This document shows, piece by piece, positions 4,312 to 40,401 of a stretch of 64,000 nt of DNA. Made by a program: the position numbers and the translations under genes. The number at the start of each line of letters is the position of its first letter. The first letter of the stretch is position 1. The notes beneath the pieces are model-generated. The model was not told the origin of the DNA and ran no database searches. It worked only from the letters and a program-made list of their open reading frames with translations. This DNA is from a virus (Duplodnaviria > Caudoviricetes), in the IMG/VR virus record IMGVR_UViG_3300028364_000013; one strand, 5' to 3'.

Positions 4312-4336
4312 AACATTATTTTTAAATTTACGTATA
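4312..4336 (+). promoter_or_regulatory. ECF-like promoter AACATT-N13-CGTATA (copy 1)
   Basis: Exact motif 22 nt upstream of ORF 4359; four identically spaced copies in the window. Confidence 0.65.
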
Positions 4337-4358
4337 TAATATATACCTTTAAAGTAAT

Positions 4359-4754
4359 ATGGGACTAAAATACAAACTTAGAAAACTACGAGTAAGGCTC
4401 AAAAAATCTAAAGATAAAGACTTAGCTTTGGATGACGTTCAAGAAAAAGCTATTGCAGTTGTTATTCAAATGATTAACAGTAGCAGTAGCGAATTAATCA
4501 TGGACCCCAAAAATTCAAGAAAAGGCGTTAAAAATAAAGACTCATTCATCTGCATTAGAAGACATAAATTAACTATTATTAATGGAGGATACCCTTATGA
4601 TGTACCTATTGATGACAGGATTCATGACCATATTACAGAAAAATTCTACGAAAAACTAACAAGAAGATTTAATGCAATTGATTGCCAAATTGATTCTATG
4701 GTAAAAGAGAATTTAGACACCATAAAAGATAATCTAAAAAATAAAGAATCTTAA
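4359..4754 (+). CDS. Hypothetical basic protein (131 aa)
   Basis: ORF directly downstream of AACATT/CGTATA motif. Confidence 0.75.
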   Translation: MGLKYKLRKLRVRLKKSKDKDLALDDVQEKAIAVVIQMINSSSSELIMDPKNSRKGVKNKDSFICIRRHKLTIINGGYPYDVPIDDRIHDHITEKFYEKLTRRFNAIDCQIDSMVKENLDTIKDNLKNKES

Positions 4755-4762
4755 ATTTTCCA

Positions 4763-4787
4763 AACATTTTCTTTTTGTTTACGTATA
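4763..4787 (+). promoter_or_regulatory. ECF-like promoter AACATT-N13-CGTATA (copy 2)
   Basis: Exact motif 29 nt upstream of ORF 4817. Confidence 0.65.
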
Positions 4788-4816
4788 ACTTAATTGAACC
4801 AATAGAACATTAAGTT

Positions 4817-5458
4817 ATGCTATACTATTTTGATAAAGAAAAACTTGAATATAGATTTGCTAAAAAATCATTAGCAATAATTGTCACATCAACTCTATTG
4901 CTAATTGCAGTTGCTGTACTCTTTATAAGCTCGCTAATGGCTAATAAAAGAGTTGAGAAGAAAATTAATGAAAATCCGAACATTATCAACCTATCCTCAA
5001 TGGAGCCAGAGGAAATTATAGTCGTTGTCAATAACGCTGATGAATTCTCTGAAGAAAAACTTAAAAACTATATTCTTGAGTTAAATATTAAATTTCCAGA
5101 CATTGCGTTTGCACAAGCGAGATATGAAAGCGGAAACTGGGGGACCAATCCTGGCGCTAATATGTTTGAGAAAAACAATAACCTTTTTGGAATGAAGTGT
5201 GCGACCTCAAGAACAACAACTCACAAGGGAGAGCAAAATGGTCACGCTTATTATAGTCACTGGAGAGAAAGTGTTATTGACTATGCTATGTGGCAGGATG
5301 CCTACGCAAGAGATTTGAAGACCAGAGAAGATTATGTCGCTTACCTCAAGAGGGTGTATGCCGAGGGAACATATGTTTCTATCATGCAAATCGTCAAAGA
5401 GGTTAGAAAAAAATACCCAGAACTTTACGTCAAGTCTTATCCAAAATTAGATAAATAA
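4817..5458 (+). CDS. Membrane-anchored glucosaminidase (GH73-like peptidoglycan hydrolase)
   Basis: N-terminal TM helix; AFAQARYESG...NNNLFGMK and YYSHWRESVIDY motifs. Confidence 0.8.
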   Translation: MLYYFDKEKLEYRFAKKSLAIIVTSTLLLIAVAVLFISSLMANKRVEKKINENPNIINLSSMEPEEIIVVVNNADEFSEEKLKNYILELNIKFPDIAFAQARYESGNWGTNPGANMFEKNNNLFGMKCATSRTTTHKGEQNGHAYYSHWRESVIDYAMWQDAYARDLKTREDYVAYLKRVYAEGTYVSIMQIVKEVRKKYPELYVKSYPKLDK

Positions 5459-5513
5459 AAAAACCCTCCAGCATTGCTGAAAGGTTCTTTTAATTTAATA
5501 AACAAAACTTAAT

Positions 5514-6023
5514 TTAGAATGGTAAATCATCCTGTGCTTTTGCGTTAGCAAAATCATTTGTTGCAACATACTCCTTAGTTTGCGCTTGAGCCTCTGCAAC
5601 TGGTGCATTAGCTTTTTGTGCTGGAGCAGAGTTTTGTGCTGGAGCAGAGTTTTGTGCTGGAGCAGCGTCAGTACCGTTAGCTTTTGTTCCAGTGAACAAA
5701 ATTTTGTCAGCAACTACTTTAGTAGAATAAAAAGTAACCTCTTGACCATTAACTTCTTTTACGTAGCTATCAGTCTTTAATTTACCTTTTACGATAAACC
5801 CAGTTCCTTTTTTTCCATAACTTCCTAAGAAATTAGCAAGACCATTCCAAGCCTCAACCTTAACCCATTCAGTAGTTTGAACTCTATCTCCACCAGCTTT
5901 AGGCGCATAAGAGTCGTTAATTGCGATAGACATGTTTGCAACAGCCTTATCACCATCTAATTGTTTTACTTCTGCATCAGCACCTAAAGTACCCATGATA
6001 GTAACATCGTTTAATCCATTCAT
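5514..6023 (-). CDS. ssb: Single-stranded DNA-binding protein
   Basis: NDVTIMGTLGADAEV, TEWVKVEAWNGLA, VKGKLKTDSY; C-terminal DDLPF. Confidence 0.95.
   Translation of the reverse strand: MNGLNDVTIMGTLGADAEVKQLDGDKAVANMSIAINDSYAPKAGGDRVQTTEWVKVEAWNGLANFLGSYGKKGTGFIVKGKLKTDSYVKEVNGQEVTFYSTKVVADKILFTGTKANGTDAAPAQNSAPAQNSAPAQKANAPVAEAQAQTKEYVATNDFANAKAQDDLPF
5614..5666. repeat. 18-bp tandem repeat (about 3 copies; APAQNS) in the SSB linker
   Basis: TTTTGTGCTGGAGCAGAG repeated. Confidence 0.8.
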
Positions 6024-6067
6024 GATTTTTAATTTTAAATTATTATTTGTTTCACTTAATTAGACTA

Positions 6068-6099
6068 CAAATCTATGTCACTTTTAGTTAACATCCAAA
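6068..6099 (-). promoter_or_regulatory. Bacteroidota sigma-A type promoter TTTG-N20-TAGATTTG upstream of ssb
   Basis: Plus strand CAAATCTA 6068-6075 and CAAA 6096-6099. Confidence 0.7.
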
Positions 6100-6156
6100 T
6101 TTATTTTGACTTTTTTGATGTATTTATTAGAAACAACTCATTAACATTACCAAACA

Positions 6157-7557
6157 ATGAACAAAGACGTTAAAAAAATAATTTCAGAAGCATTCAATGA
6201 ACTATATAAAGATTTGATTTCTGAAGCAGAAGCTGGTATGAATCCTGCAGACAAAGCAGCAGCAGATAAAATGATTGCAAGAGTTAAAACTTATGGAGAT
6301 GCAAGTGGGTTCTCAAACAATGGAGCAAACACAAAGCAGAATGATGTTTTTAACTACATATTAGATGCGCTTATTTCTGAATACAAAAGTACAGAAGACC
6401 AAAATACTAAGCAAAAAATTAAAAATGGTATCCAGGGAGCTTTTTTCCCAGCAATGAATGCAGATGGAAGACCCAACAAGACATTAAATGTACTTATGGG
6501 AAAATGGCCAGGAAAAGATAGAGATGCAGTTCAAGATGCTGCAGCTTCAGCGTATGAATCATTCATGAAAAACTTTGATGGGTTTATAGACAAATACACA
6601 CCTGGAGCTGGAAGTAGTTTTGGTGGAATTGTTTTAAACAACTTGAATTCTAAAATGTATGATGTAATTCAAAAAGGATTTAGAGGAAAAGGCCTTGGTG
6701 GAACTCAGGATACTTATTCAAGAGCTGGAAACAGCATGGGCTCTATGGATGACCCTTATGGAGACGATAGCACACTTGGAGCGACAATGGCTGACCCAAA
6801 CTCATTAGGAGCAGACAATGACACTGAAGCATCAATATCGGAAGACCAAGATTTATTGGCAATCGTTAATGGATGGCTTAAGAATAATGTTTCAGAAAAA
6901 CAATACATCGCCTTTAGAGAACTTACAAAAGGATTTACTCCAAATGAAGTTGCTGAAGATTTCCCAGAGCATTTTGGAATTGGTAAAGATGTTTCAAGAA
7001 ATTTCGCACAATTACTTTCGAGAAAAGAAAAAGATGAAGATGGAAACACTGCCCTTACGCTTGACAGACTTAGCGACATGCTTTCTTATGCAAAGAAAAG
7101 AGATATTGACTTGAAAAACATAGTTCTTAAAAATCTTAGACAAACTATCTCTCAAGACCCAAGCTTCTCTGGGGATGGAAAACGTTCTTACGTATCTTCT
7201 CCTGAAACAAAAGCGGCTCTTAAAGATTTGAGCGATTCAATGTATGAACTTGGTCCAGATGTTTTAAGCAAACTTGGAGTTAAAGATAAAATTGATTTCC
7301 AAAATGGAGCTCAAATTTCAAAAATTATAAACAAACTTACTGTCCTTGGATTGGAAAGTGAGGTTCGTGATATTGAAGATGCTTGGGCTGATGTTAAAAG
7401 AACAAGAGATGCCTCAGCTGATTATGGTAAAGTAACTAACTATGCCGACAAAGTAGATGAAAGCGGTATCGCAGGAATGTTTGAAGGACTTGATGTCTAT
7501 GATGGTTTCGATATAGAAATTCTTATGAACAGAGTTATGCAAAGATTATCAAAATAA
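6157..7557 (+). CDS. Divergent sigma70/ECF-like protein with Glu-rich leader (putative virion-associated sigma factor)
   Basis: Region-2-like DRDAVQDAAASAYESFMKNFDGFIDKYTPGAGSSFGGIVLNNLNSKMYDVIQK; region-3.2-like SMDDPYGDDSTLGATMAD; region-4-like NVSEKQYIAFRELTKGFTPNEVAEDF. Confidence 0.55.
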   Translation: MNKDVKKIISEAFNELYKDLISEAEAGMNPADKAAADKMIARVKTYGDASGFSNNGANTKQNDVFNYILDALISEYKSTEDQNTKQKIKNGIQGAFFPAMNADGRPNKTLNVLMGKWPGKDRDAVQDAAASAYESFMKNFDGFIDKYTPGAGSSFGGIVLNNLNSKMYDVIQKGFRGKGLGGTQDTYSRAGNSMGSMDDPYGDDSTLGATMADPNSLGADNDTEASISEDQDLLAIVNGWLKNNVSEKQYIAFRELTKGFTPNEVAEDFPEHFGIGKDVSRNFAQLLSRKEKDEDGNTALTLDRLSDMLSYAKKRDIDLKNIVLKNLRQTISQDPSFSGDGKRSYVSSPETKAALKDLSDSMYELGPDVLSKLGVKDKIDFQNGAQISKIINKLTVLGLESEVRDIEDAWADVKRTRDASADYGKVTNYADKVDESGIAGMFEGLDVYDGFDIEILMNRVMQRLSK

Positions 7558-7577
7558 ACTTAATTTTATAAAATTAG

Positions 7578-7606
7578 AAAAGACACCTCATTGGGTGTCT
7601 TTTTTT
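7578..7606. terminator. Bidirectional intrinsic terminator between convergent genes
   Basis: AAAAGACACC-loop-GGTGTCTTTT with T-run. Confidence 0.75.
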
Positions 7607-7607
7607 G

Positions 7608-7826
7608 TTATAACAACAATGCTTTAAAGTTTTGATTGTCTATCTGCTGAGGAACCCCATCGACAAGTTTATAAATATTAAGGTCTGAATCAAATAGAAC
7701 TAAATCATAATTCATATCTTCTTCTGTAAGAATTTTGTCATTCTCCATATCCTTAATTCTCACGATGTGCCTCTTGAGTCTTGACGCAAACATTTTATCA
7801 ACTTTATCGTGAAATTCTTTATTCAT
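7608..7826 (-). CDS. Hypothetical protein (72 aa)
   Basis: ORF co-oriented with 7844-8392. Confidence 0.6.
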   Translation of the reverse strand: MNKEFHDKVDKMFASRLKRHIVRIKDMENDKILTEEDMNYDLVLFDSDLNIYKLVDGVPQQIDNQNFKALLL

Positions 7827-7843
7827 AAGTTAATGTACTAAAT

Positions 7844-8392
7844 TTATTTATTATCGTATTTTGATTTTTTAGCTTTTGCGTAAATACCAATCGGTAAAAT
7901 TATAATACCAATAATCAATGGTAAAGTACAGATGCCTAAAATTAACCACGCATTAGCGACATATCTTTGTGCATACCAAGGTTTTGATGCATCCATCTCA
8001 TCTTCTTTAATTTTTTGCATATTCTGTGCATATTTAACCTCAAATTCAACATCGGATAATTTAACAATTTCAGATAAGTATTTTGTTAAATCTTGGAGAT
8101 GATAATTCGCATTTTGGACCTCAATTGAGTTATCAAAAGAGCCAAGCTTACGTCTAATCTCAATTGTAATTTTCGTGCTTATATCTGAAATTTTAGTCAT
8201 ATTAAAGTCAATATAGACACCTAATGATAAACCCTCAAAGCATTCAAGAATAACTTGGTTAAGAATGTCATTCTCATCATGAATTCTATATTTACCATCG
8301 GATGTGATATAAATTTTAGAAATAGATGATTTTACTTTTTCTATTGGGAAATCAATTGTGATTTCTTTCTTTGGATTTAGAATGCTAATCAT
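7844..8392 (-). CDS. Hypothetical membrane protein (C-terminal TM hairpin)
   Basis: AWLILGICTLPLIIGIIILPIGIY hydrophobic stretch; AACATT/CGTATA promoter upstream. Confidence 0.75.
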   Translation of the reverse strand: MISILNPKKEITIDFPIEKVKSSISKIYITSDGKYRIHDENDILNQVILECFEGLSLGVYIDFNMTKISDISTKITIEIRRKLGSFDNSIEVQNANYHLQDLTKYLSEIVKLSDVEFEVKYAQNMQKIKEDEMDASKPWYAQRYVANAWLILGICTLPLIIGIIILPIGIYAKAKKSKYDNK

Positions 8393-8428
8393 TTTTACTT
8401 TTTTGTTTTTAAATTATTATTACTTATT

Positions 8429-8453
8429 TATACGTTAAATTTAAAGAAATGTT
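8429..8453 (-). promoter_or_regulatory. ECF-like promoter AACATT-N13-CGTATA (copy 3)
   Basis: Plus strand TATACG 8429-8434 and AATGTT 8448-8453. Confidence 0.65.
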
Positions 8454-8511
8454 TCATGATTTCTAAAAAATCAGTTTACAAAGATAATAAATTTTTAATT
8501 AAACGAATAAT

Positions 8512-8658
8512 TCAAAATTTATTATCTTTAGTTTTAGTATTGACATGCACAACATTAGAATAATCATACCCATCATTCCTATCATTCCTATCATTCCTAT
8601 TATTCCAGTTACCAGAGTCTTTCAGTTTCTGTAAAAATTCTTTAGTCTTGTCTGTCAT
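8512..8658 (-). pseudogene. Truncated remnant of a DUF723-type homing endonuclease N-terminus with 9-bp repeat expansion
   Basis: Own translation MTDKTKEFLQKLKDSGNWNNRNDRNDRNDGYDYSNVVHVNTKTKDNKF*; YDYSxVxxxxxKxK resembles the repeats of ORF 10163-10999. Confidence 0.55.
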
Positions 8659-8675
8659 ATATTAAGTCAATTAAA

Positions 8676-10190
8676 TTATTCATAAATCATAAAATATAGT
8701 TTATGCTTTGAGCGACTAACAGCTACGTAATGAATATTCTTAGACTCTTCATCTTTTTCAGTAAAAGAAACTCTCTCCAGGCGTTTTTTTCCAAGCTTGT
8801 CGTAAATTCCGCACTCCTGAAGAACTTCTGGAGAAACAGAATTAACAACAACACACTCATCAAACTCACGCCCTTTACTCTTGTGTATTGTAGTAATAAA
8901 TTTCTTAGACTTTTTGAACTGCTCTATGAACGTCATTAATTGGGCATCATTTTCGAAGTGACCCTTGAAGTTATTCATTTTACCTCTAAGGTGAGAATCT
9001 ACATCTCCTCCTTTGTATTTCTTAATATCAGCATCGTTGATGAAATTGAAGTACTTCATTGGAACCTTCCTCTTTAGCAGTTCTTTCTCAAGTTTTCTAA
9101 TTGTAGCATTTGTCCTAACCAGCACAACAACTTCTCCTGGTTGTTTCAACAATTCAACAAGCTCATCTAACCTAAGCATCACTTTCCTGTCAACATCACC
9201 TTTGTCTGCGCTATTTGCAGTCGCTGTAAGAGACGAATACTTATTTGAGTTCTCTACAATCAACTCATCACTTCTAAAGTTGACAGAGAGGCTCATTTCG
9301 GTAACATCACGCCTTTTCTTTAGCATTGACTCAAGTTTGCTACAGTTTGCTCCAGAGTATCCATAAATACTTTGATTACGGTCACCAATTAAATAGTAAT
9401 ACTTAGCATTTAACGAAAGAAGTGTTTGAAGCTGTATAGTACTCGTATCTTGATACTCATCTACAAATATGTAATCATACTTATCTCTAAACATCTTAAG
9501 CCACTTATTCTCTCTTAATAAATCACGAACCTCAATAAGCATGTCAGAAAAATCTCTTTTCTTTGTTACTCTTAAGAATTTTCTGTAATCATTATAAAAC
9601 TGAGGAACTGGAGCCTTTACATTATCAGCAGACTGCAACTTAAATGAACCTATAGCTGAAGACAGCTGTTCAGCATCTTCATACATGTTTGCAATAAGTT
9701 CAAAGTGAGCCTCTTTTTGTTCTTTAGTAGCGTGACTACTTGGTTTATGCTCTTGTCTGAACCAGTTTAAAAACTCATAAAATGACGCTATCGCTTTATA
9801 CTTTTTCATACTGGCAAGCAAACTATTAGAGAATGCATGTATAGTAGTAATCGTACAACCCTGTCCATGAGAACTTACTTTCTCACGAACTTGAATCCCT
9901 GCAGACGCAACCCTTTCTCTAAGCTCATCAGTGGCAGCTTTTGTGAAACTGAAAAATATAATCTTGTTTGGGTCAACACCTCTATCAACAAGAGACTTTA
10001 ACCTTTGAACACAACTGAATGACTTTCCTGAACCAGCTGTTGCCGCAAGTATTAAAGAATCTTTTTCTGAATAATTTATAAATGCACTCTGCTCATCTGT
10101 ATATTGAATCTCTGATTTTTTTGCGTGCGATGTACCTTCGAATAAATCAACTTGACCTCTGTCTATTGTAATTTCTTTCTTTTTTCCCAT
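8676..10190 (-). CDS. uvrD: UvrD/Rep-family superfamily-1 helicase
   Basis: AATAGSGKS, FSFTKAA, TIHAF, YIFVDEYQDTS, IGDRNQSIYGYSGA, NFRS, TIHKSKGREFD, YVAVSR. Confidence 0.92.
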   Translation of the reverse strand: MGKKKEITIDRGQVDLFEGTSHAKKSEIQYTDEQSAFINYSEKDSLILAATAGSGKSFSCVQRLKSLVDRGVDPNKIIFFSFTKAATDELRERVASAGIQVREKVSSHGQGCTITTIHAFSNSLLASMKKYKAIASFYEFLNWFRQEHKPSSHATKEQKEAHFELIANMYEDAEQLSSAIGSFKLQSADNVKAPVPQFYNDYRKFLRVTKKRDFSDMLIEVRDLLRENKWLKMFRDKYDYIFVDEYQDTSTIQLQTLLSLNAKYYYLIGDRNQSIYGYSGANCSKLESMLKKRRDVTEMSLSVNFRSDELIVENSNKYSSLTATANSADKGDVDRKVMLRLDELVELLKQPGEVVVLVRTNATIRKLEKELLKRKVPMKYFNFINDADIKKYKGGDVDSHLRGKMNNFKGHFENDAQLMTFIEQFKKSKKFITTIHKSKGREFDECVVVNSVSPEVLQECGIYDKLGKKRLERVSFTEKDEESKNIHYVAVSRSKHKLYFMIYE

Positions 10191-10999
10191 TTTAAAATTT
10201 CTTTTTCTAAAATCGCTTCAATATTTTTCTTATCATAATATGGTATTCTTAAAAGCTTTTTATTTGTTTTTTTGCAAAATTCATTTTTTATAGAATCATT
10301 TTCTTTAATCTTTTTAAAGTTCGAATCACTCTTTTTTGAAATTGTGAATCTGGGCTCAAAATGCTGCTCTCCATCATATTCAATGCACATATCATAATTT
10401 GGAAGGTAAAAGTCAAATGGAAGGTAGTTAATATTCTTACATTCATCAAATTTCTTTTGAGATTCATATAAAACCCTTTTGTTATCCAAGAATCTTTTGA
10501 CCTCCCTTTCTCCGTGAGACAATCTACACCTTGGACACCCTTGTCCAGCTTTATGTTTCCCTGGAGACTGTTCAAAAACGCCATGATTTTCACAAATTAT
10601 TTTAACTTTAGTTTTATCACCAACATATTCAACTAATGAATAATTATAATTATCTCCATGTACTTCTGCAAACCTTTTTATAGCATCAGATTTATCGTCT
10701 GTTTTCTCTTCTTTTGCACAACAAGGACATCCTATACCTTTTAAATGATTCCATATACATTGCTCAAAAACTCCATGTTTTTTACAAATTATCTTAGCCT
10801 TATCTTTAACTTTTTCATACCAAACCAAAGAATAGTCATATCTGCCGCTATGGACTTCAATGGCTTTGTTTATATTTTTCTCAACCCTATCTTTTTTTGA
10901 TTTTTCGTAACATATCTTACATCTGGTTCCATTGTTTGGGATAATTATCCTACCTCCATCTGGATGTAGTTTACACTTTCTTGTTCTAACTTTTTTCAT
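10163..10999 (-). mobile_element. Free-standing homing endonuclease gene (DUF723-like Zn repeats plus PD-(D/E)XK domain)
   Basis: Two YDYSLVxY...KIICxxHGVFEQ...HxxGxGCP repeats; LPFDFYLPNYDMCIEYDGEQHF. Confidence 0.8.
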
Positions 11000-11125
11000 C
11001 TTTATCCTTTTCTATAAATAGGATAAAAGATTTTAAAAGAGCCGAAAAAACTTTTTAGTGCGCAACTATGAAGGTTAATTTATAGGGTCAACCACTAAGT
11101 TTATCTTTTTCTTGGCCATAATATA

Positions 11126-11965
11126 TTAAACGTTTTGAGCCTGAGCTTGTTTTGCTTTTTCTGTGATTTTTCTAAGCAACAACTTAGTGTCTCCAGGCAT
11201 ATCTGAAGCATTAACACACCAATCATAGTAACTTGCATCAGCAAGCATCATATCGCCAATAAGATTGTTTTTGTACTTACCAAAATTAAACACTGGTCTT
11301 CCGTCATTATTTAAAATGATATTACCACGTACATCAAGAGCTTTTTTGTTTCTATTGAAGTTGTCATGAAGAGTGTTTGGGTTTGTATTTATAAACCTTG
11401 CATCCTCAGGATAAGCGGCAACCATTCCATTAAAAATGTTTACAGACTCAATATTTGCTTGCTCTGATTTAATTGGAGTATCCTCAAGAGTTTTTCCAGT
11501 ATATCTTTCGATAGCTGCTCTGAAATCTCTTCTCTCCATATTGTGATATATTGAACTTAAGTCAATAATGTTTCTACCAACAATTGTAAATTCTATACCA
11601 GCATTATTAAACTCTTCTGTTAAGAATTTAAGGTCAAAATTTGTAAGGCTAAATCCAGCAAAATCAGCATCTCCTATAAACGAATATAAAGCTGCCGCAA
11701 TTTCTTTGAAAGATTGGGCACCTGCAACATCTGCATCTGTCAAACCATTCAACAATGAAGCTTCGTCTGGAATTGACATTCCTGGATTCACCAACTTAGT
11801 AGCAATTTGAACTTGCCTTTCAGTGTCAACTTTAATTATAGAAATTTCTATGATTCTATCAGCTGGTTTGTCGCTGTCTCTTTTTTGAACTGGTTCTAAT
11901 CCAGTTGTAGCAACCTTTAAAAATACCAAAGGTTTCTTAAGGTTTAATTTTAAATCTAAACTCAT
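11126..11965 (-). CDS. DnaQ/epsilon-like DEDDh exonuclease homologue with substituted catalytic residues
   Basis: LVFLKVATTGL (normally FxDxETTG), RIIEISIIK, INFDL-like TNFDLKFLTEEF, FNFGKYK C-terminal domain. Confidence 0.75.
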   Translation of the reverse strand: MSLDLKLNLKKPLVFLKVATTGLEPVQKRDSDKPADRIIEISIIKVDTERQVQIATKLVNPGMSIPDEASLLNGLTDADVAGAQSFKEIAAALYSFIGDADFAGFSLTNFDLKFLTEEFNNAGIEFTIVGRNIIDLSSIYHNMERRDFRAAIERYTGKTLEDTPIKSEQANIESVNIFNGMVAAYPEDARFINTNPNTLHDNFNRNKKALDVRGNIILNNDGRPVFNFGKYKNNLIGDMMLADASYYDWCVNASDMPGDTKLLLRKITEKAKQAQAQNV

Positions 11966-12010
11966 CTCTTCTAAATTTTTGTTATTTATAAAGCGAATAT
12001 AGTGAAAATA

Positions 12011-12274
12011 TTACACAAACTCACCATTGATGTAATTATTTCTTTCTTTTATTTTTTCATCACTCCAATTTTCTTGTACAGATTTGACAAAATTAACCTC
12101 CGTTTTTGAGGTCCAAAACAACTTTTTATAATCACTATTATATGTTTCAAAAAAAAGAAGACCGTCCTCGTCTTCTTTTATTAAGATGAGCTCTTGGCTA
12201 TGTGGAATAACTTCGCCATCACCCATCTCTTTGTTTTTAACTAATATATAATAATCTACATTAACTTCTTTCAT
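12011..12274 (-). CDS. Hypothetical protein (87 aa)
   Basis: ORF translationally coupled to the sigma factor stop. Confidence 0.7.
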   Translation of the reverse strand: MKEVNVDYYILVKNKEMGDGEVIPHSQELILIKEDEDGLLFFETYNSDYKKLFWTSKTEVNFVKSVQENWSDEKIKERNNYINGEFV

Positions 12275-13170
12275 TATCTAATTTCACAATTTAAAAACTC
12301 TTTTAGTTTTGAACTATTATTAAACGTTCTTAACTTTTTAAGAGCAAATTCTTTAATCTGTCTAACTCTTTCGTTTGTTAGACCAATTTTATTTCCTATT
12401 TCAGCAAGAGTCATCTCTTCTCCTCCATCAAGTCCAAAATACATCTTTAAGATAACACCTTCTCTTTCTGTCAACTCATCTAAAACGTCTTCTATTTCAG
12501 TCTGAAGAGCATGTTTATTCATTCCGTTTTCCATCTCTCTTAATCCATCTCCAGCCATTGACTCGTGAAGTTCTGTAGCAGACTCATCTGACACAGTTGT
12601 GTTAAGAGAAATCTCTATGCCATTATCGGTATAAGCATTCCTAACCTCTTTTTCAGACAAAGTTGACTTCCCTTCTTCTTCATTGTAATAAAAATTACTA
12701 ATCTCTTTTATAGTCGGCTCCCTACTAAGCTCTTTAGAAAGCGCTTCCGTAGCCTTTATCACCTTATTGATTGCATTGATTCTATTCACTGGCAATCTAA
12801 CTGAACTTCCATTTTCGTATGCTGATTGCAATATAGATTGTCTAATCCACCAAACCGCATAAGAAATAAACATAAACCCCTTAGTGTCATCAAAACGCTC
12901 TACGGCTTTTATTAAACCTAAGTTACCTTCTTGAATTAAATCTTCCAGCGGCATCCCAGTATATGTGTATTCTTTTGCAACTGATAGAACAAATCTTAAA
13001 TTACTCTCAATCAATTCTTTTAAAGCCCTTTGGTCTCCGTCTCTGGCTTTTATAGCTAATTTTACTTGCTCCTTTCCATCAACCTGGTCATACCTTCTAA
13101 CTTCTTTGTAATAGCACTTAAGCGACAAGTTGTCTCTTTGCATTGTTTCATCTCCTTTCAACATATTCAT
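12274..13170 (-). CDS. rpoD: RNA polymerase sigma-70 factor (RpoD-like, short Bacteroidota type)
   Basis: LIESNLRFVLSVAKEY, DLIQEGNLGLIKAVERFD, FISYAVWWIRQSILQ, RLPVNR, MTLAEIGNKIGLTNERVRQIKEFALKKL. Confidence 0.93.
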   Translation of the reverse strand: MNMLKGDETMQRDNLSLKCYYKEVRRYDQVDGKEQVKLAIKARDGDQRALKELIESNLRFVLSVAKEYTYTGMPLEDLIQEGNLGLIKAVERFDDTKGFMFISYAVWWIRQSILQSAYENGSSVRLPVNRINAINKVIKATEALSKELSREPTIKEISNFYYNEEEGKSTLSEKEVRNAYTDNGIEISLNTTVSDESATELHESMAGDGLREMENGMNKHALQTEIEDVLDELTEREGVILKMYFGLDGGEEMTLAEIGNKIGLTNERVRQIKEFALKKLRTFNNSSKLKEFLNCEIR

Positions 13171-13181
13171 CCTATTATTTA

Positions 13182-13622
13182 TTAATCATTCCAGTTAAGC
13201 TGGGAAATGAATTTTTTGAACTTATTAAAGTCCTCTTCGTTGTCAATGTTTATAGCAGTTGTGCTTTCATTACCTTCTGAGTCAGCTCCAGTGGTATGTA
13301 CTTGAAGGAACCTGCTTTCTTGCCCTCTTTCTCTAAAGCTAATCAAATCAACTTCTATAATACCAGAAATTTGCCCTTCAGGGTTTTTTGTTTCAAGTCT
13401 TATAAAAGTATTACTACCTTCCTCTGTGAGAACGTTGTCCGCAGATTCATGATGTGATAAATTAGTAGCAGGTGCCGTAGGTGCCGTAGGTGCCACTGCA
13501 GGTATTGCTGTAATCTTTTGTTCTTCTTGTACTTCTTGTACTGGAGGCCCCGTTTGTATGCTTCCCTGCGATGGGATTGCATTGCCAGGAAACACTCCTC
13601 TGTTGTTGTTATTATTTTCCAT
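13182..13622 (-). CDS. Hypothetical protein (start probably MENNNNN)
   Basis: ORF; the promoter at 13647-13678 overlaps the longer track start, so the downstream ATG is preferred. Confidence 0.7.
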   Translation of the reverse strand: MENNNNNRGVFPGNAIPSQGSIQTGPPVQEVQEEQKITAIPAVAPTAPTAPATNLSHHESADNVLTEEGSNTFIRLETKNPEGQISGIIEVDLISFRERGQESRFLQVHTTGADSEGNESTTAINIDNEEDFNKFKKFISQLNWND

Positions 13623-13646
13623 TATTCCACAATTTTTTATTATAAA

Positions 13647-13678
13647 CAAATATAGTCAAAAAAAGAGCGGATTCCAAA
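13647..13678 (-). promoter_or_regulatory. Bacteroidota sigma-A type promoter TTTG-N20-TATATTTG
   Basis: Plus strand CAAATATA 13647-13654 and CAAA 13675-13678. Confidence 0.7.
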
Positions 13679-13728
13679 TTGGAACGCTCTAATCTCTTAT
13701 TTTTTATAAAATTATAAATTTATTTTTT

Positions 13729-14385
13729 CTACACTGCACTTTGAACCGTTACAGCGTCAATGACTTGTTCTAATATTTCTTCTTTTAAGTCATCAAAAGA
13801 TAATCTCTTTTTTGTATTCTTTGCATATATCAACTCCTCATTTGGTTCGTCAATATACCATTTTGCATTACCAATCTCAACAGTTGGAAAATCGAGCTTC
13901 ACCTTCTTTCTCTGACCCTTACCTTGTCTGTGAGATTTTTTTTCTAAAGTATCAAAATCAACAGTCCCATCAGCATTTTTATCTGCTGTATCGTAAAATT
14001 TCTTTAATTGAGAAATTGACATTTGATGGTCGGTCCTGGTATCTTGCTGCAATTGGTTTGAGTTTCTAAAAAATATTGTCGTAATAACATTATCTCTCAC
14101 AACTGCCCAAAGCTCATCCCCAACAGAAACATGCCCAGTCTCTGGGTCTTTAGATGAATATACAACTGGATATTTCTTTATCTGTATTGATGCTGATTCA
14201 TATTCAGGAAAATTAACTCTCTTAATCAAATCTACAGCACCTTTTATTTCATCGTAATTAAACTTAGGTCTTGTATACATAGTGCTTGAAAGCCTGTCAT
14301 GAACTCTATCTTTAAAGTGAGTTGATGGCGCTGCTTCATTAAACACTTCCATTATTATGTTTCTTATTTCTTGTTGAATGTCCAT
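13729..14385 (-). CDS. Hypothetical protein with Glu-rich leader
   Basis: MDIQQEIRNIIMEVFNEA; coupled to the upstream ORF. Confidence 0.8.
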   Translation of the reverse strand: MDIQQEIRNIIMEVFNEAAPSTHFKDRVHDRLSSTMYTRPKFNYDEIKGAVDLIKRVNFPEYESASIQIKKYPVVYSSKDPETGHVSVGDELWAVVRDNVITTIFFRNSNQLQQDTRTDHQMSISQLKKFYDTADKNADGTVDFDTLEKKSHRQGKGQRKKVKLDFPTVEIGNAKWYIDEPNEELIYAKNTKKRLSFDDLKEEILEQVIDAVTVQSAV

Positions 14386-14693
14386 TAAAAAGTGTCTTTA
14401 TATTTTAAGATTTGCTGCATTTTAACAGCATCCAATACAGTACCTCCTTTAAGAGTCATTGTGTATTCTTTAGATATTGCATTTTGAATCTCTTCGAAAC
14501 TCAATCTGGTGTCATCAACCAAGAAACCTCTCTCTGAAAATGTGATAACATATTCAGATTCTGTGCCGCCATTAAACCTGACTGCTTTTGGCTTCATCTT
14601 AACCTTTGGTGCTGGAGCTTGCATAGGAGGAAACTCCTCGCTCAATAATGCGCCTTTTAAAATGCTTGAAATCTCTTCTCTTAATTCGTCCAT
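14385..14693 (-). CDS. Hypothetical protein with Glu-rich leader
   Basis: Start MDELREEISSILKGALLSEE at 14693, 16 nt after the TATTTATT motif. Confidence 0.75.
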   Translation of the reverse strand: MDELREEISSILKGALLSEEFPPMQAPAPKVKMKPKAVRFNGGTESEYVITFSERGFLVDDTRLSFEEIQNAISKEYTMTLKGGTVLDAVKMQQILKYKDTF

Positions 14694-14760: not shown

Positions 14761-14785
14761 AACAATTTTATTAGAAATTCTAATT

Positions 14786-31609: not shown

Positions 31610-31611
31610 AT

Positions 31612-31917
31612 TTATCCTCTATCTCTTGTTGCAACAATTTTTATATTCACTTCATTCAATACATCCTGAAGCGGGAACGGAACCCTAATCGCAGTATTGT
31701 CTGGAATATCAAACTCCATAAAGTATTCTGGATTGGCCCAAAGTATTAACCTCCAAAACGTTTCATCTCTATATATATCTCCAGCAATAGTATCTAACCT
31801 ATTTTTTTGTTGATTGTATATAATGACTCTATCGGTATGTCTCTTTTTTATTAAAACAGGAGGCATATCTTTTAATTTGTCGTTTGACTTTAATAGACTG
31901 TAGAAATTGAATGGCAT
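31612..31917 (-). CDS. Baseplate LysM/tail-X-like protein
   Basis: RLDTIAGDIYRDETFWRLILWANP...IRVP. Confidence 0.78.
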   Translation of the reverse strand: MPFNFYSLLKSNDKLKDMPPVLIKKRHTDRVIIYNQQKNRLDTIAGDIYRDETFWRLILWANPEYFMEFDIPDNTAIRVPFPLQDVLNEVNIKIVATRDRG

Positions 31918-31978
31918 AATTATTTACTTTTCTATAAATAATAAGAATAAAAAAAGTGAAAACAAAGCCTATTACAGA

Positions 31979-34900: not shown

Positions 34901-36337
34901 TGATTGAATTGGTTTGTTTACAGACAGGTCATCAGCTCTAAATTGAACTGAGTCTGTTTCTAAACTACTTTCGCTCGGCTTGTTTGCAGAAAGGTCGTCA
35001 GCTCTAAATTGAACTGAGTCTGTTTCTAAATCGCTTAAATTAACTTTATTTGCTGACAGGTCGCTATCTCTAAATGGAACTGAGTCAAATTCTAAATTGC
35101 TTGTATTTGGTTTGTTTGCCGAAAGGTCATCGCTTCTAAATCTCTCAGAATCTTTTTCAAGGTCTGAATTTTTGTTAGGATTTAAAGCCAGGTCATCTTC
35201 TCTAAACTGAGCTGAGTCTGTTTCTAAATTTGTAGGATTAGGTCCGTTTTTAGAAAGTAGTTCAATTCTTTTTTCATCACCAATTTCATCTAATCCAATA
35301 GAGCCTTCTCCGCCTTTTGAAAGATTATTGTTTCTATATATTTCAGAATCAGCTTTAAGGTCAGAATCGTTTGGAACATTCTTATGAATATTATCTCTTC
35401 TGTAAAGTTCGTTATCTCTTTCTATATCAGTTTTGTTTGGAACATTTCTGTTCAAATCTTTCTCTCTATACTGATTTCTAATATCTTCAGTATCTCTAAG
35501 AAGGTCTTGGTCCTTTGGTGGATTCTTACTTAAATCACCTTTTCTAAATGCACCAGAGTCTTTTTCAAGGTCTGAATCATTAGGAGTATTCTTTGCAATA
35601 GATTGGTCTCTCTTAGCTTTAGAAATATCGTCTATATCTTGCTTCTTAATACCTTCAACATTTTTATGAAGGTTTCTTAACCTAAATGATTCAGAGTCCT
35701 TCTCAAGGTCTGTATCTATAGGTACGTTCTTATGAACATCATTCTTTCTATATTGATTTCTAAATGATTCAGAATCTTGAAGTAAATCTTGGTCCTTTGG
35801 TGAATTTTTTGCAATAGCATTCTCTCTAAAAGCTTGGCTATTTTTATCAATATCATCGTTGAATGATAAATTAGGGTTGTTCTTCGCTAAATTGGTTCTT
35901 CTTAATTGTTCTGAATCTTTTTCAATATCAGATTTCTTAGGAGAGTTTTTTGCAATAAGATTATTTCTATAAGCCTCTCCAGACCTCATTAGATTATTTT
36001 TGTCATCTTGTATTTTTGCTCTTGCAAGCATTGAGTTTCTAAAATCTTCAGAAATTTTTGCAAGGTCAGTTTCATCAGTAACCAACTTAGCAATCAATTT
36101 ATCTCTTATAATTTTTGCATCCTCTTCAAGATTTGACTTAAATGGAGTATTTTTAGACAATAGAGTTTCCCTTGTTCTTGGATAAAGAACATCATAAACG
36201 CTGGATGGTCTGACAATAGTTTTAGCAAGAAGTCTTTGTCTTGCGTTAGCCGAAAATTCTTCATAGTATTCTCTTAGCTTCTCCTCTTGTCTGGCAGCAT
36301 CATCGTTTGGGTCAAATAAAGGGAATCCGTCTTCCAT
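31979..36337 (-). CDS. Tail/baseplate protein with a long 22-aa repeat region and a C-terminal tube-cap-like domain
   Basis: FHFPPYIMSMQNTENANWNSVNFLGRPEAVYTYNNSSRD and IVVNSVSFDYADAPW resemble contractile-tail tube initiators; lies between tape measure and LysM genes. Confidence 0.65.
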   Translation of the reverse strand: MEDGFPLFDPNDDAARQEEKLREYYEEFSANARQRLLAKTIVRPSSVYDVLYPRTRETLLSKNTPFKSNLEEDAKIIRDKLIAKLVTDETDLAKISEDFRNSMLARAKIQDDKNNLMRSGEAYRNNLIAKNSPKKSDIEKDSEQLRRTNLAKNNPNLSFNDDIDKNSQAFRENAIAKNSPKDQDLLQDSESFRNQYRKNDVHKNVPIDTDLEKDSESFRLRNLHKNVEGIKKQDIDDISKAKRDQSIAKNTPNDSDLEKDSGAFRKGDLSKNPPKDQDLLRDTEDIRNQYREKDLNRNVPNKTDIERDNELYRRDNIHKNVPNDSDLKADSEIYRNNNLSKGGEGSIGLDEIGDEKRIELLSKNGPNPTNLETDSAQFREDDLALNPNKNSDLEKDSERFRSDDLSANKPNTSNLEFDSVPFRDSDLSANKVNLSDLETDSVQFRADDLSANKPSESSLETDSVQFRADDLSVNKPIQSDLEKDSTQFRADDLSLNKPVQSSLETDSIPFRSDDLSFNTPSFTDLETDSVVFRDDDLSLNTPNLSDLEIDSANFRLDDLSANSPIDTDLEVDSVPFRADDLSANSPNFSDLEVDSVPFRNDDLATNVPNFSDLLDDSAPFRTDDLSANVPNSSNLLTDSEDFRDDDLSANVPSTSDLGVDSAIHRATDLAANVPNNSSILADSVAFRDNAVSSNVPLAQNLLTDSSTYRTDAIAKNAGYGLLGVNVNGAGTSAFLGISRVFTQGIILRQLLLSKNVSKNTNLETDSEVFRDNNKISNRWQVSNNEYTSSNENWTLGRITQGSINTNKVDYTRLDPYYTPTAKAIFSTDDYIVTKGNEIQGLYGTSQKVDFPTGRRPRVISDALYSVNPIGEKGGQFEDSFFKRQTYVPFKEGQVTSTIRNYSLERSAFNLYRLQAGDPSSLGELESFNQDGFQELISNTIGSFRGLSQLRTNTTPASVIQANGGAYYQGGGGNMDLLRPTANDAVLGSAQSMMAKTSIGNPYEDEDFFLGKRGVKHIVNTIKASNEPLAPNFDPQNNRAYITGVKRDGSPRISRQRYTVANPYAPSDAGKLVFFIKNYASEEQFHFPPYIMSMQNTENANWNSVNFLGRPEAVYTYNNSSRDASISFFVLTDYAQSVDVGRDWDSEGMEKVAATFDKHFTDSDKAQNTNIINQIEALKAEQNKQKDDAIELSKKIDENQNEGAAIESKQEEIEQSTEQDDFFGWFQTKTIAAKNKAKNAQDAIFNKEQKKNNEVESGILDKRAQELKTEAGKVNDAIGEADNKFNGLTDYSESNTNAGNVYNIDVIKKEFINGETACKPEDTIKRINTMKKNLMFQPAYFSGDKIDFVRKVEFLSKLTRPAANDNGSETGFSFTTPPICHIHLGDWWNHDIVVNSVSFDYADAPWTLEGGRVQPMWVLVSLNFNMIGPYKSFNAAPPLATDAGGMYSPLRGL
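34160..36200 (-). repeat. Degenerate 66-bp / 22-aa tandem repeat array (DLExDSxxFRxDDLSxNxPxxS)
   Basis: Units such as DLETDSVQFRADDLSANKPSES and SLETDSVQFRADDLSVNKPIQS; roughly 25-30 degenerate units; boundaries approximate. Confidence 0.85.
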
Positions 36338-36396
36338 TAATTAGTGTTTCTTATAAATAATAAAAGAAAAAAATTCAGGCATTAAATTAAAGCCTT

Positions 36397-39300
36397 TTAT
36401 GTAACAATCGTTGTATCATCAACAATAATACTCTGAAGGTCTCTACCATTAAGCTTAAGGTCAATTTGAATCTTTTGAGTTCCACCGCTCTTTCCGCCAC
36501 CTTCTCCAACTTTACTAAGTTTAGCAAGAGCTTCAGCGATTTTATTAATTGAGTCTCCCATAAGACCTCCTCCTATAGCGCCAATTGCCATAGACCAAGA
36601 AAGATTTCTAAGCATCTCAAGTTTTTCAAGGTCAAGACTGCTTGTTGCAGACATCAACCTTTCAAGACCTTCAGCCATCCTATCCAACCCATCTGCAGCA
36701 GCAGGAAGCGTTTCTCCAAGCGGAGCCATTACAGCGGCAAGACCAGAAAGGGTTCCAATCATCATAAGCATACCAAGAAGTAATATTGGATTAAGGAACA
36801 TAAGCCCAGCAAATCCAAATCCAATTAAACCTGGAACTATGCCGAGAAGAGCGTCTCCCATTTTTGAGAAAGCTGTCCAATCCACAGCAGAAACCATAGT
36901 AGCCGCAACAGCAATGCCCATAAGCCCTAAAGAACCAAGCATCAACGCTGGAGCTGCCATCATAAGAGCAAGCCCACCAAGCAATAAACCTGGCGCTGCT
37001 AATAATAAATTCCAACCAAGGTCACCAAGCCACCCGAACTCCATTCCCTGCATTGCTGCAGCTGCAGCAGAAAATACCATAAGAGAAGCTCCAAACGCCA
37101 TCAAAGCAATACCAACAGCGACTAAACCAAGAGCTCCAATTAATAAAAACATTCCAGCTGGAGTTGATAATAATAGACCAAGACCTATCAAGGTGACAAC
37201 TGTTCCTAATAACATTAACACCGCCATACCAACAGCACTCCAGTTAACTTCTGTAAATAACCCAAGAGCAAATGCAAACGGAATCAAAGACGCTCCAATT
37301 AAGACCATCATAAGTGCCCCTTTCATAATACCCTTAGCCCTACCAAGCGTTGATATACCTCTTGCGAGAGATTGAAATCCGAATACCACCAATTTACCTA
37401 ACGCTCCAACAGCAGCCATAAGAAAAAGAGTTGGCATACCTGGAAGCATCATTAACAATGCTGGCCCAGCAAGCGCTGTAGCAAGCACACCTTTCATTAC
37501 AGTTCCAAAATCTGTACCCATTGCTTTAAGACCTTTAGCAAGCCTTTCTAATCCTGTCTCACCTTTTCCTTGTGGTGCAGAATCTGTAGCGCCAGCGCCA
37601 GGAACCTCAGGAGCCGCACTTTGCGCCATCTCTTTTCCTTTTCCGATTCCCAATTTACCCATAAGACTTTTTCCGCCAGATGCCATAGCTTTAAATCCAT
37701 CAAGAGATTTTCCAAGCATAGGAGCTGCGGCTACAAACGCAAGAAGAGCTGCGGCCACATACTTAAGAGGCCCTGGCATTCCCATAATACCTTGAATGAA
37801 CGATGTCAAAACGTCCAGCACTGGCTGAAACAAAGTAAACATATTCATTATAGTATTTTTAAACGCATCTATACTCTCTTGGAACGATTGATTTGCTTTA
37901 GCTTGCTCTTCAAGCGTTTTGGTGTCATCCATTTTTTTCTGAATAAGCTGTTGTGCCTGGTCTGCTGTCAAATCTTCAAGACTTGCTATTCCCATTTCAT
38001 CAAGCATACCGCCTTCAAGAGCTTTACCATTAACATCTACAGAATCAAGAAGCATATTATTCATCATATCTTGGTCAAGAGGCTTTCCGTCTGGACCCAT
38101 AACTTCTTCCAGCTGCATATCTGGTAAGAAATCCATTTTCTTATTATCTTCCGCATTCTTTTGAATCATCTTCTGAATAGAATCCATTGACTGACCTGTT
38201 GCGTCAGCAACTATTTGAAGACGGTCAACATCAATTGCATCAAAAGAGAATGTTCCATCTTCTGCAAACGAACCTATGTCATCACCCATTGTAGTAAGAA
38301 TCTTTTGAAGCTCTTCTGGGCCTTTACGAGCTGCAGAAAGCAAATCCATTGGATTAATAGCCGCAAACGAACCACCAGCAAGCTGAAGTTGTGATGCCAT
38401 ATCCATGGCTCCTTCTATATTTCTTGCCTTAGCTGCAACATCAAATATCTCATCAACATTCATACGAAGCCTTTCAGCAGTTGCAACCATTCTTGTCAAA
38501 GACTCTTCGCCACCCTGGAATCCCATCTGACGCATTTTATCAATATTTCTTGCAACACCTTGCAGGACTTTTTTGGTATTAACTCCAAACAACTTAGCCA
38601 TCTTATTTGAACCTTCCATATATTCTTCCACTTCTCCTGCAGACTGCCCAGCTCTCATCATCTCTCCTGCAATCTTAGAAACCTCTTCAGAAGAAATTCC
38701 AGTAGCCTTTTGAATTGCTACAAAGTGCTCAGTTGCCGAAGCTAAATATTGAGTATCAATTGTTCTAAGTTCTTCACCAAGAGCTCCCATTAATGCGACT
38801 GTATCTTTAGTTGACATATTAAACTCAGCAGCCTTACTGGTAAGCTCTGTCATCTGAACTACATTGGAACTATCGAATACAAGACCAAAATCCTTTTGAG
38901 CATCCTTAAATGCTTGATTGGTTTGTTTCATGTGGTCAAATATAGACTTAAACGCATTTCCAGAGTTTTTTTCGACCATGCTCCACATGTTCTTTCTAAT
39001 GCTTGTTTCGGTCTTCATTTGATTTGCAGACTCAGCTTGTAAATTATTTAACACAGCTTGTCCGTCAGACATTTGTTGAGTCAATCCAAGCAATTCTTGT
39101 TTTGCCTTAGCATCAAGAGAGTCGGTTGCAAGTATTTGCTCTACAGCATCAAGCTCTCCGTTTCTAAGACTTTCTATCATAGACATCTTATCTGCAATAG
39201 AACTAAGAGGTAATTCGTCTAATATATCGCTTATTTCTTTGTTTGCATCAAGCCAATCGTTAAAATGGGTTTCATTTTTACTATTAAAATCCTCTTTGTT

Positions 39301-39777
39301 TTTATGAAAATCATCATGAAGTTTTACCAGCTGTTCGAATTCATCCTTTTGGTCTCCTTGTAATTTGTTTATATCACCCCCAAGAGTTTTCATTCTATCT
39401 TGAACTTCTGATATATTAGTAAACTCTTGAGAAAGTTTTGATGCGTCAATAGAATTAAGAGATGCGGCAAATAAATCAGAAGATGATTTAACAGTCTTAA
39501 ATGCGCCTTCTAAATTTAGAATTTGATTTGCCGCTTCAGATATGGCAGCTTTTTGACCTTCTATTGACTTCTTAGCGTCATTGATTAATTTAATTTCTTT
39601 TAATCTTTCTTCTTGAGTCTTTTTGGTTTGAGTCATGAAACCGCTAAAAGCAATACCCATTTCATTAGCAAGACTCGAAGCGGCCTGCTCTTGAGATTGA
39701 ATTCTTTTGTTTATTGCATCGAGTGAATCTTGATAGGCTTTTGCCTTTTTCAGATTATCGTCCATATTGTCAGCCAT
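36397..39777 (-). CDS. Tail tape measure protein
   Basis: 1126 aa, helical Ala/Gln/Met-rich N-half and Ala/Gly/Leu hydrophobic C-half; ends IQIDLKLNGRDL; sits upstream of baseplate genes. Confidence 0.82.
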   Translation of the reverse strand: MADNMDDNLKKAKAYQDSLDAINKRIQSQEQAASSLANEMGIAFSGFMTQTKKTQEERLKEIKLINDAKKSIEGQKAAISEAANQILNLEGAFKTVKSSSDLFAASLNSIDASKLSQEFTNISEVQDRMKTLGGDINKLQGDQKDEFEQLVKLHDDFHKNKEDFNSKNETHFNDWLDANKEISDILDELPLSSIADKMSMIESLRNGELDAVEQILATDSLDAKAKQELLGLTQQMSDGQAVLNNLQAESANQMKTETSIRKNMWSMVEKNSGNAFKSIFDHMKQTNQAFKDAQKDFGLVFDSSNVVQMTELTSKAAEFNMSTKDTVALMGALGEELRTIDTQYLASATEHFVAIQKATGISSEEVSKIAGEMMRAGQSAGEVEEYMEGSNKMAKLFGVNTKKVLQGVARNIDKMRQMGFQGGEESLTRMVATAERLRMNVDEIFDVAAKARNIEGAMDMASQLQLAGGSFAAINPMDLLSAARKGPEELQKILTTMGDDIGSFAEDGTFSFDAIDVDRLQIVADATGQSMDSIQKMIQKNAEDNKKMDFLPDMQLEEVMGPDGKPLDQDMMNNMLLDSVDVNGKALEGGMLDEMGIASLEDLTADQAQQLIQKKMDDTKTLEEQAKANQSFQESIDAFKNTIMNMFTLFQPVLDVLTSFIQGIMGMPGPLKYVAAALLAFVAAAPMLGKSLDGFKAMASGGKSLMGKLGIGKGKEMAQSAAPEVPGAGATDSAPQGKGETGLERLAKGLKAMGTDFGTVMKGVLATALAGPALLMMLPGMPTLFLMAAVGALGKLVVFGFQSLARGISTLGRAKGIMKGALMMVLIGASLIPFAFALGLFTEVNWSAVGMAVLMLLGTVVTLIGLGLLLSTPAGMFLLIGALGLVAVGIALMAFGASLMVFSAAAAAMQGMEFGWLGDLGWNLLLAAPGLLLGGLALMMAAPALMLGSLGLMGIAVAATMVSAVDWTAFSKMGDALLGIVPGLIGFGFAGLMFLNPILLLGMLMMIGTLSGLAAVMAPLGETLPAAADGLDRMAEGLERLMSATSSLDLEKLEMLRNLSWSMAIGAIGGGLMGDSINKIAEALAKLSKVGEGGGKSGGTQKIQIDLKLNGRDLQSIIVDDTTIVT

Positions 39778-39812
39778 GCTCTTCTTTTATTATAAATAAA
39801 TAATAAAAAAAA

Positions 39813-39836
39813 AGCTGCCCAAATTAAAGGGCAGCT
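39813..39836 (-). terminator. Terminator hairpin
   Basis: AGCTGCCC-N8-GGGCAGCT followed by a U-run on the minus strand. Confidence 0.7.
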
Positions 39837-39858
39837 GACTATATTATATTTATATTTT

Positions 39859-40347
39859 TTAAGAATTCATAAAACCTTTATACACTTTAGCTGGGTTGCT
39901 GTTTCCAACTGTGGCGTTAAAACCTGTTACCGCTTTTTTAAACACTGGACTTCCAGACTTAGCGCCATCCCTCATAACGTCAAGGTTAGCTGTTTTTTGG
40001 TAAATATTAAAAGCTTCCTTGTCGTCTTTGTGAGACATGATATTGTCTCTATGAGCAATAACTCTATCTAAAGAATTAGTGTCTGCTCTATTTTCTGAAT
40101 CTCCAAACATTCTGAAGAAAGAAATAAAGTAAGGAATTCCAAATGGCAAAAGAAAACCTAAAGTCATGCCAATACCATTATCTTCAAGTACTGATTGGAT
40201 AACCTTTGGGTCAATAGCTCCGAATATAAAATAAATCATTAAATTATATCCAATAAAAGCAATTATTGTAAGATTAAAAGGAATTACATAAAACCAGTAC
40301 ATAAGCACTTTAGCAATTGTAAGTAATATATTTTTAATAGTATTCAT
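39859..40347 (-). CDS. Hypothetical membrane protein
   Basis: Two to three hydrophobic N-terminal helices; AACATT/CGTATA promoter upstream. Confidence 0.75.
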   Translation of the reverse strand: MNTIKNILLTIAKVLMYWFYVIPFNLTIIAFIGYNLMIYFIFGAIDPKVIQSVLEDNGIGMTLGFLLPFGIPYFISFFRMFGDSENRADTNSLDRVIAHRDNIMSHKDDKEAFNIYQKTANLDVMRDGAKSGSPVFKKAVTGFNATVGNSNPAKVYKGFMNS

Positions 40348-40376
40348 AACATTTTTAATTATTGGTTCTATATTCT

Positions 40377-40401
40377 TATACGATAAAACTTTAAAAATGT
40401 T
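40377..40401 (-). promoter_or_regulatory. ECF-like promoter AACATT-N13-CGTATA (copy 4)
   Basis: Plus strand TATACG 40377-40382 and AATGTT 40396-40401. Confidence 0.65.

Follow-up and report, generated by a model that had tools for sequence, protein, structure and literature searches.

A conserved class of predicted sigma-W/ECF-type promoters in a lineage of huge phages, and its candidate sigma factor

The DNA analyzed here (the window) is a stretch of 64,000 nucleotides from a virus of the Caudoviricetes (IMG/VR record IMGVR_UViG_3300028364_000013). It is the reverse complement of bases 1–63997 of an 81,256-bp viral contig, for which CheckV estimates a completeness of 25%. A first-pass annotation of the window had described a bipartite element, AACATT-N13-CGTATA, as a promoter for a sigma factor of the extracytoplasmic function (ECF) type. 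We confirmed four exact copies of this element, at positions 4312–4336 (+), 4763–4787 (+), 8429–8453 (−) and 40377–40401 (−). These sites, and their counterparts in the rest of the contig and in related phages, are referred to below as class B.

All four copies lie on the strand of the open reading frame (ORF) that follows, with CGTATA ending 22, 29, 36 and 29 nt before the ATG, respectively. Copy 1 (AAC at 4312–4314, CGTATA at 4331–4336) precedes the ATG at 4359 of ORF131 (4359–4754, +), which encodes a soluble protein of 131 aa whose N-terminus is basic and which matches no family. Copy 2 precedes the ATG at 4817 of a 213-aa ORF (4817–5458, +) with a transmembrane (TM) anchor at residues 14–46, identified by hydropathy, and a glucosaminidase/endolysin-like GH73 domain (Pfam PF01832 at 2.7e-10, together with a PHROG endolysin match); no relatives of this ORF were found among viral contigs. 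A 17-bp hairpin (5456–5492) lies where the GH73 and SSB genes converge. The terminator scan calls it on the − strand, and the A-run before and T-run after its stem suggest that it also stops transcripts of the + strand. Copy 3, which reads TGAAAC-N16-CGTATA and so shows the full sigma-W consensus, precedes the ATG at 8392 of ORF182 (7844–8392, −), a tail-anchored protein of 182 aa whose C-terminal TM segment falls within residues 143–175. The second gene of this cassette, ORF72 (7608–7826, −; 72 aa), has a 72%-identical homologue in a related 95-kb contig (G005), and the cassette ends in an intrinsic-terminator-like hairpin (7578–7603, −). Copy 4 overlaps the stop codon of a 505-aa gene and precedes the ATG at 40347 of ORF162 (39859–40347, −), whose 162-aa product has two to three N-terminal TM segments; a terminator-like hairpin with a T-run (39813–39836, −) closes the cassette. 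This unit of promoter, ORF162 and terminator is an insert between two genes that bear a late-type motif (cTATTTATa, described below). A compact cassette thus stands behind each copy in the window, closed by a hairpin in three of the four cases (copies 2, 3 and 4). Judged by hydropathy, three of the four targets (the GH73 protein, ORF182 and ORF162) are membrane-anchored, in agreement with the earlier description.

The exact element occurs four times in the window and not once in 100 dinucleotide-preserving shuffles. A scan of the window that allowed two mismatches returned 11 matches against 6.7 expected, and the additional matches are at chance level. The motif scan yielded three further copies in the 17 kb of the contig outside the window, each before a co-oriented ORF. 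Copy 5 is exact (G000:C1:71888–71912) and precedes a PTH2-like gene; copy 6, with an N14 spacer that is one base longer, precedes a DUF723 gene; and a variant with CGTAGA precedes a 38-aa leader ORF, with tRNA genes starting approximately 0.5 kb downstream. All seven copies on the contig are non-coding, co-oriented with the next ORF, and end 13–36 nt before its ATG. The four copies in the window are a window-limited sample of a larger promoter class.

Alignment of the copies gives tGaAACATTTT-N11-CGTATAA, and tGaAACnTTTt-N11-CGTAtaa is the consensus of the class as a whole. The conserved unit is therefore wider than the two hexamers first noticed, and the 'ATT' of AACATT consists of one variable base and the beginning of a T-tract. 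AAC is present in 7/7 contig copies, in the context tGaAAC in the clade of this phage and tg(a/t)AAC in a 291-kb relative that is 91% complete (G002). CGTA is likewise found in 7/7 copies (six CGTATA, one CGTAGA), and the AAC-to-CGT spacing is N16 in six copies and N17 in the seventh. The T-tract next to the −35 box is preserved as AACnTTTt in this phage, G002 and G005. The description of the element as invariant does not hold, given the CGTAGA copy and the occurrence of AACT and AACC at hexamer position 4 in relatives. We analyzed the dependence between the boxes in the three genomes, which have a G + C content of 31–35%. The dinucleotide xx in AACnTT-N13-xxTATA is CG at 5/7 sites in this contig, 6/9 in G005 and 25/42 in G002; conversely, the trinucleotide at the −35 position of nTT-N13-CGTATA is AAC at 5/7, 6/8 and 25/34 sites in the three genomes. 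AAC and CG are the informative and mutually dependent positions. Both the −7 TAnnTTTG box of the Bacteroidota primary-sigma type and the late-type cTATTTATa motif are absent from all four sites in the window, and a scan for E. coli-type sigma-70 promoters performed at chance level.

Downstream of some copies a further short sequence was observed. AACCAATA(A) lies exactly 9 nt past CGTATA in copies 2 and 4 (window 4797–4804 and 40361–40368), as well as at the sites matching copy 4 in G005 and in a third relative (G001), and 'ACCAA' follows many promoters of class B and of a second class (class A, see below) in G002. These sequences may be a start-region or leader signal.

To assess conservation, AAC-N16-CGTATA was counted against a reversed-pattern control in 42 contigs related by portal sequence. 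The counts were 30 vs 4 in G002, 16 vs 3 in G004 (which covers 59% of its genome) and 6 vs 0 in G005, and many small related fragments carry one or two copies each. In G002, 27/30 sites are non-coding and 23 lie at most 100 nt upstream of a co-oriented ORF, with the consensus tg(a/t)AACtTTTt...tttCGTATAA. In the 49-kb contig G001, which is syntenic with the window at approximately 70% DNA identity, copy 4 is retained between the same two genes and again overlaps the stop codon of the gene before it, with both boxes intact but a diverged spacer. In G005 the promoter is retained at the genes homologous to ORF131 and ORF162 (31% and 41% identity, respectively), and dozens of unrelated small genes in the relatives are also headed by class B. 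Related phages share class B and have it in front of their genes, so that position, orientation and conservation all bear out the behavior expected of a promoter class.

The nature of the target genes was compared across this contig, G005 and G002 by hydropathy, with both the test and the gene calls being crude. A TM-like segment was found in the ORF directly following a class B site in 14/35 cases, versus 79/561 other ORFs (odds ratio 4.1, p = 3e-4). The membrane bias of the targets is real, but not exclusive. The proposal of a regulon for envelope modification or superinfection exclusion is not supported by the class as a whole, which also heads the PTH2-like gene, the DUF723 gene and the leader ORF before the tRNA genes. 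The ORFs after copies 5 and 6 contain an in-frame TAG, at codon 3 of the PTH2-like ORF (L006:8050 onward) and codon 5 of the DUF723 ORF (L006:6767 onward), the latter of which begins with a duplicated 5′ end of PTH2. The contig also carries an amber-suppressor tRNA with anticodon CUA (L006:9394–9466), and no stop interrupts the large structural ORFs when they are read with the standard code.

The sigma-W promoter of B. subtilis has the −35 element tGAAACnTTTt, including a −35-proximal T-tract, and a −10 element CGTA that confers selectivity for sigma-W (PMC5758882). Class B shares with this sigma-W/ECF01 promoter the AAC core at −35, CGTA at −10, an AAC-to-CGT distance of 16 nt, and the T-tract, in line with the ECF assignment that had been made from the AAC...CGT arrangement. 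By every one of these sequence hallmarks the class B sites are ECF (sigma-W/ECF01)-type promoters. They differ from the B. subtilis promoters in that they belong to a phage likely to infect Bacteroidota rather than Firmicutes, in the extension of the −10 element to CGTATAA, and in that their dependence on a sigma factor is putative; also, no anti-sigma gene of the RsiW type was seen adjoining the phage sigma genes. An identical copy of the protein encoded by ORF 6157 of the window is on record in a 364,053-bp contig, and the full genome is therefore that of a huge phage, of roughly 364 kb. On the basis of sequence, class B is a real and conserved sigma-W/ECF-type promoter class of this huge phage lineage.

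Which sigma factor reads these sites? The only sigma gene on the 81-kb contig encodes an RpoD-like protein of 298 aa with regions 1.2, 2, 3 and 4 (12274–13170, −). G002 encodes two sigma factors, an RpoD-like protein and an ECF sigma of 223 aa (L096:1129–1800; regions 2 and 4_2), and the latter finds its best solved match in SigW of B. subtilis (E 2e-18). A profile of the clade formed by the phage and Bacteroidota ECF proteins matches SigW at 2.5e-41, seven orders of magnitude before the next chain, and region 2 of the phage-clade sigma is near that of SigW (FSTWLF..N.FID.LRKKK). Because a SigW-like sigma beside sigma-W-type promoters makes the simplest pairing, we pair this ECF sigma with class B, and the dedicated phage sigma suggested earlier is the best candidate reader. 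We consider it probable that the reader of class B is a SigW-like ECF sigma encoded by the phage itself, acting at the middle step of a sigma cascade. Host core RNA polymerase carrying this sigma would recognize the two boxes and start transcription approximately 6–9 nt downstream of CGTA, and each site would drive a short cassette of small accessory genes, many of them for membrane proteins. The sigma gene itself would lie outside the 81-kb contig, elsewhere in the genome of roughly 364 kb.

Several observations weigh against this assignment. There is no ECF sigma on the 81-kb contig (25% complete), nor on the 59% of its genome that is available for G004, which carries 16 copies of the motif. 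Class B was not seen before the ECF sigma genes, which have class A promoters instead, so that there is no sign of self-activation. In G002, with its two sigma factors and two phage-specific promoter classes, the pairing of the ECF sigma with class B rests on the type of the motif and the likeness to SigW, and a related Bacteroidota ECF sigma (35–39% identity) might read the same sites. The 388-kb relative G003 is uninformative, as it encodes an ECF sigma 30% identical to that of G002, yet has neither promoter class.

Four observations make a Bacteroidota host probable. Shine-Dalgarno sequences are missing at the start codons; TAnnTTTG boxes stand before the SSB, DnaB, PolIII and sigma-operon genes; the closest isolates by portal sequence are a Microcystis phage and Flavobacterium phages, each at 40–42% identity; and the closest cellular relatives of the ECF sigma of the lineage belong to the Bacteroidales and Flavobacteriales.

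The best-surviving alternative holds that class B sites are ECF-type promoters read by an ECF sigma of the host, either a SigW-like Bacteroidota protein or an envelope-stress ECF sigma that is freed on infection. The class B motif corresponds to the generic sigma-W/ECF01 consensus, Bacteroidales and Flavobacteriales have ECF sigmas 35–39% identical to those of the phage clade, and no ECF gene lies on the contig, all of which would fit a host reader. The cellular ECF gene is found in a conserved arrangement of tgt, a GT2 glycosyltransferase gene, the ECF gene and rsmG, with no adjacent anti-sigma gene (L124–L129). Release of an envelope-stress ECF sigma could perhaps be helped by three early phage proteins, namely a PrsW-family intramembrane protease (L006:1042–1869, −; 5.9e-21), an FtsH-like AAA+/M41 protease (L006:12157–14268, +) and a ClpB/ClpC-like ATPase (window 2–1591, −). 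In Bacillus, PrsW acts as site-1 protease in the sigma-W pathway, and it activates sigma-W in B. subtilis. Against a host reader, G002 combines 30 copies of the motif with a SigW-like sigma of its own and no PrsW homologue; such a homologue was also not found in G005 or G001. The motif is moreover kept across phages whose portal sequences differ by up to 59% in identity and which therefore probably have different hosts, and no class-B-like motif occurs upstream of the operons of the cellular ECF homologues. We regard a host reader as unlikely.

A reader among the other phage proteins, as the first-pass annotation had envisaged, appears quite unlikely. The RpoD-like protein is the only sigma on the contig, is conserved in the motif-bearing relatives G001, G002 and G005, and might use the TATAA contained in CGTATAA as its −10 element. 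The informative positions, however, are AAC in the −35 element and CG in front of TATA, which is the style of an ECF rather than a group 1 sigma, and the 18-nt spacer and poor match to TTGACA fit an RpoD-like protein badly; CCTCTT-N17-TATATA, found in the relatives, fits it better. The motif thus suits an ECF sigma better than the RpoD-like one. The other candidate, the 466-aa product of ORF 6157 (6157–7557, +), shows weak sigma-like signals, its matches being dominated by sigma factors, and its gene sits among three of the copies. A late-type TATTTAT motif precedes this gene, however, and it has no homologue in the 91%-complete G002 despite the 30 copies there, which makes it an improbable reader. 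ORF 6157 has 12 relatives in metagenome and assembly records and no family match. As a sigma factor it was also examined through structural neighbors in the Atlas, with hhalign (E 0.0023, probability 12.5%) and with Foldseek (E 0.03–0.3), none of them significant; no sequence match was found in the PDB, and the AlphaFold model is poor (pLDDT 59).

That class B is not a promoter at all, but an operator, a scar of cassette insertion or duplication, or a signal at the RNA level, is highly improbable: the sites do mark the borders of compact moron-like cassettes, and AACCAATA past some copies hints at further signals, but they show no dyad symmetry, an Rfam search of the window returned no family, the divergence of spacers and flanks, with only the two boxes and the T-tract kept, speaks against duplication, and the strict co-orientation with the ORF, the tight distance to the ATG and the exact ECF geometry point to promoters.

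The setting of the ECF sigma gene in the relatives bears on the timing of class B. In G002 we identified a second phage-specific class, class A, with the consensus TCCCTCTT-N14-CTTTATATA, equivalent to CCTCTT-N17-TATATA. An island of small genes spanning 42 kb (G002:C1:41400–83900, or 41.4–83.9 kb; L101–L103) carries 51 copies of it on a single strand. The ECF sigma gene of G002 sits within this island and has a class A promoter before it, and three further ECF sigma loci (L121, L122 and L123) show the same setting. The 17-bp geometry of class A would suit an RpoD-type sigma. Some class A copies overlap class B promoters in tandem. The gene for the RpoD-like protein is itself preceded by an ORF that bears a host-type TAnnTTTG box, both in the window (TAtaTTTG before ORF 13182–13649, directly upstream of the RpoD-like gene) and in G002. 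A third motif, cTATTTATa, stands 4–29 nt ahead of most structural genes, among them those for the portal, terminase, baseplate and large structural proteins, and of many others; in the window 25/39 occurrences are intergenic, against 5% expected (for example at 10999–11020, 31917–31940, 36337–36360, 39777–39800, 57922–57945 and 59718–59740). This motif is probably a late promoter.

The first-pass annotation had placed class B early in infection. As the likely reader, judged by the relatives, would itself be made from class A promoters, a middle stage is indicated instead. In the proposed order of events, host sigma-A, acting at the TAnnTTTG boxes, would make the phage RpoD-like sigma; the second phage-specific class (CCTCTT-N17-TATATA in the relatives) would then make the ECF sigma; and the ECF sigma would in turn read class B, with the structural genes run from the separate cTATTTATa motif. 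The sigma of the middle step would be a true member of the ECF family, acquired from Bacteroidota-like cells. A possible, and decidedly tentative, picture of the whole is a three-tier cascade built on two captured cellular sigma factors, in which sigma-A leads to the RpoD-like sigma, the latter to a 40-kb class A island that includes an ECF sigma without anti-sigma, and this to scattered class B membrane cassettes that would remodel or guard the envelope before the cTATTTATa late genes.

The remainder of the contig is of the type of a large T4-like myovirus, with portal, terminase and baseplate proteins, and its genes further include those for ribonucleotide reductase, PolA, DnaB, a RecA-like protein, SSB and PolIII alpha; ORFs cover approximately 95% of the 81 kb. 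The public sequencing runs containing DNA of the contig are lake-water metagenomes, with no RNA run listed among them, and a megablast search of window 4000–12000 against phage records gave no match. PolIII alpha (exonuclease, PHP and polymerase) is split into two ORFs (window 48445–55584, −). HNH, LAGLIDADG and DUF7487 ORFs lie between the halves, the first of which ends in a Hint/intein fragment. Two patatin-like phospholipase genes (window 60109–61047 and 61794–62834, −) stand on either side of a GIY-YIG homing endonuclease gene, and a stand-alone PAS-domain protein is encoded on the opposite strand (window 45971–46495, +).

The principle that a phage sigma factor has promoters of its own is already well known. 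Large phages use sigma cascades, such as gp28 followed by gp33/34 in SPO1, and gp55/gp33 at the late promoters of T4. The arrangement proposed here resembles these cascades in that temporal classes would be set by different motifs and phage sigma factors, with a separate single-element late motif (cTATTTATa). It would differ from them in having a true ECF-family member as the sigma of the middle step, and the order of its steps is one that we infer. Phage sigma factors with private bipartite promoters include gp47 of Salmonella phage 7-11 (GTAAtg-N16-aCTA) and gp36 of phiEco32 (PMC8948821), with which both the 16-nt bipartite layout and the steering of host core RNA polymerase to phage-only promoters, here predicted, are shared. 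In contrast to these systems, class B has the canonical AAC/CGTA consensus and heads accessory cassettes instead of late structural genes, in a far larger genome with at least two phage sigma factors and three or four promoter classes. Also, the 7-11 pairing has been proven biochemically, whereas that of class B is predicted. The sigma-W system is likewise among the closest in kind, SigW being the best solved match of the ECF sigma in the related phages. Sigma factors of jumbo phages in general have been described elsewhere (PMC7824862).

For these uncultured huge phages, promoter classes are the only handle on the infection programme, and a recognizable class together with a candidate sigma factor turns this handle into a usable map of gene timing. 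Class B flags the cassettes that are likeliest to act on the host envelope. It may also provide an orthogonal ECF sigma/promoter pair from a Bacteroidota setting, which could be tested in vitro without the phage.

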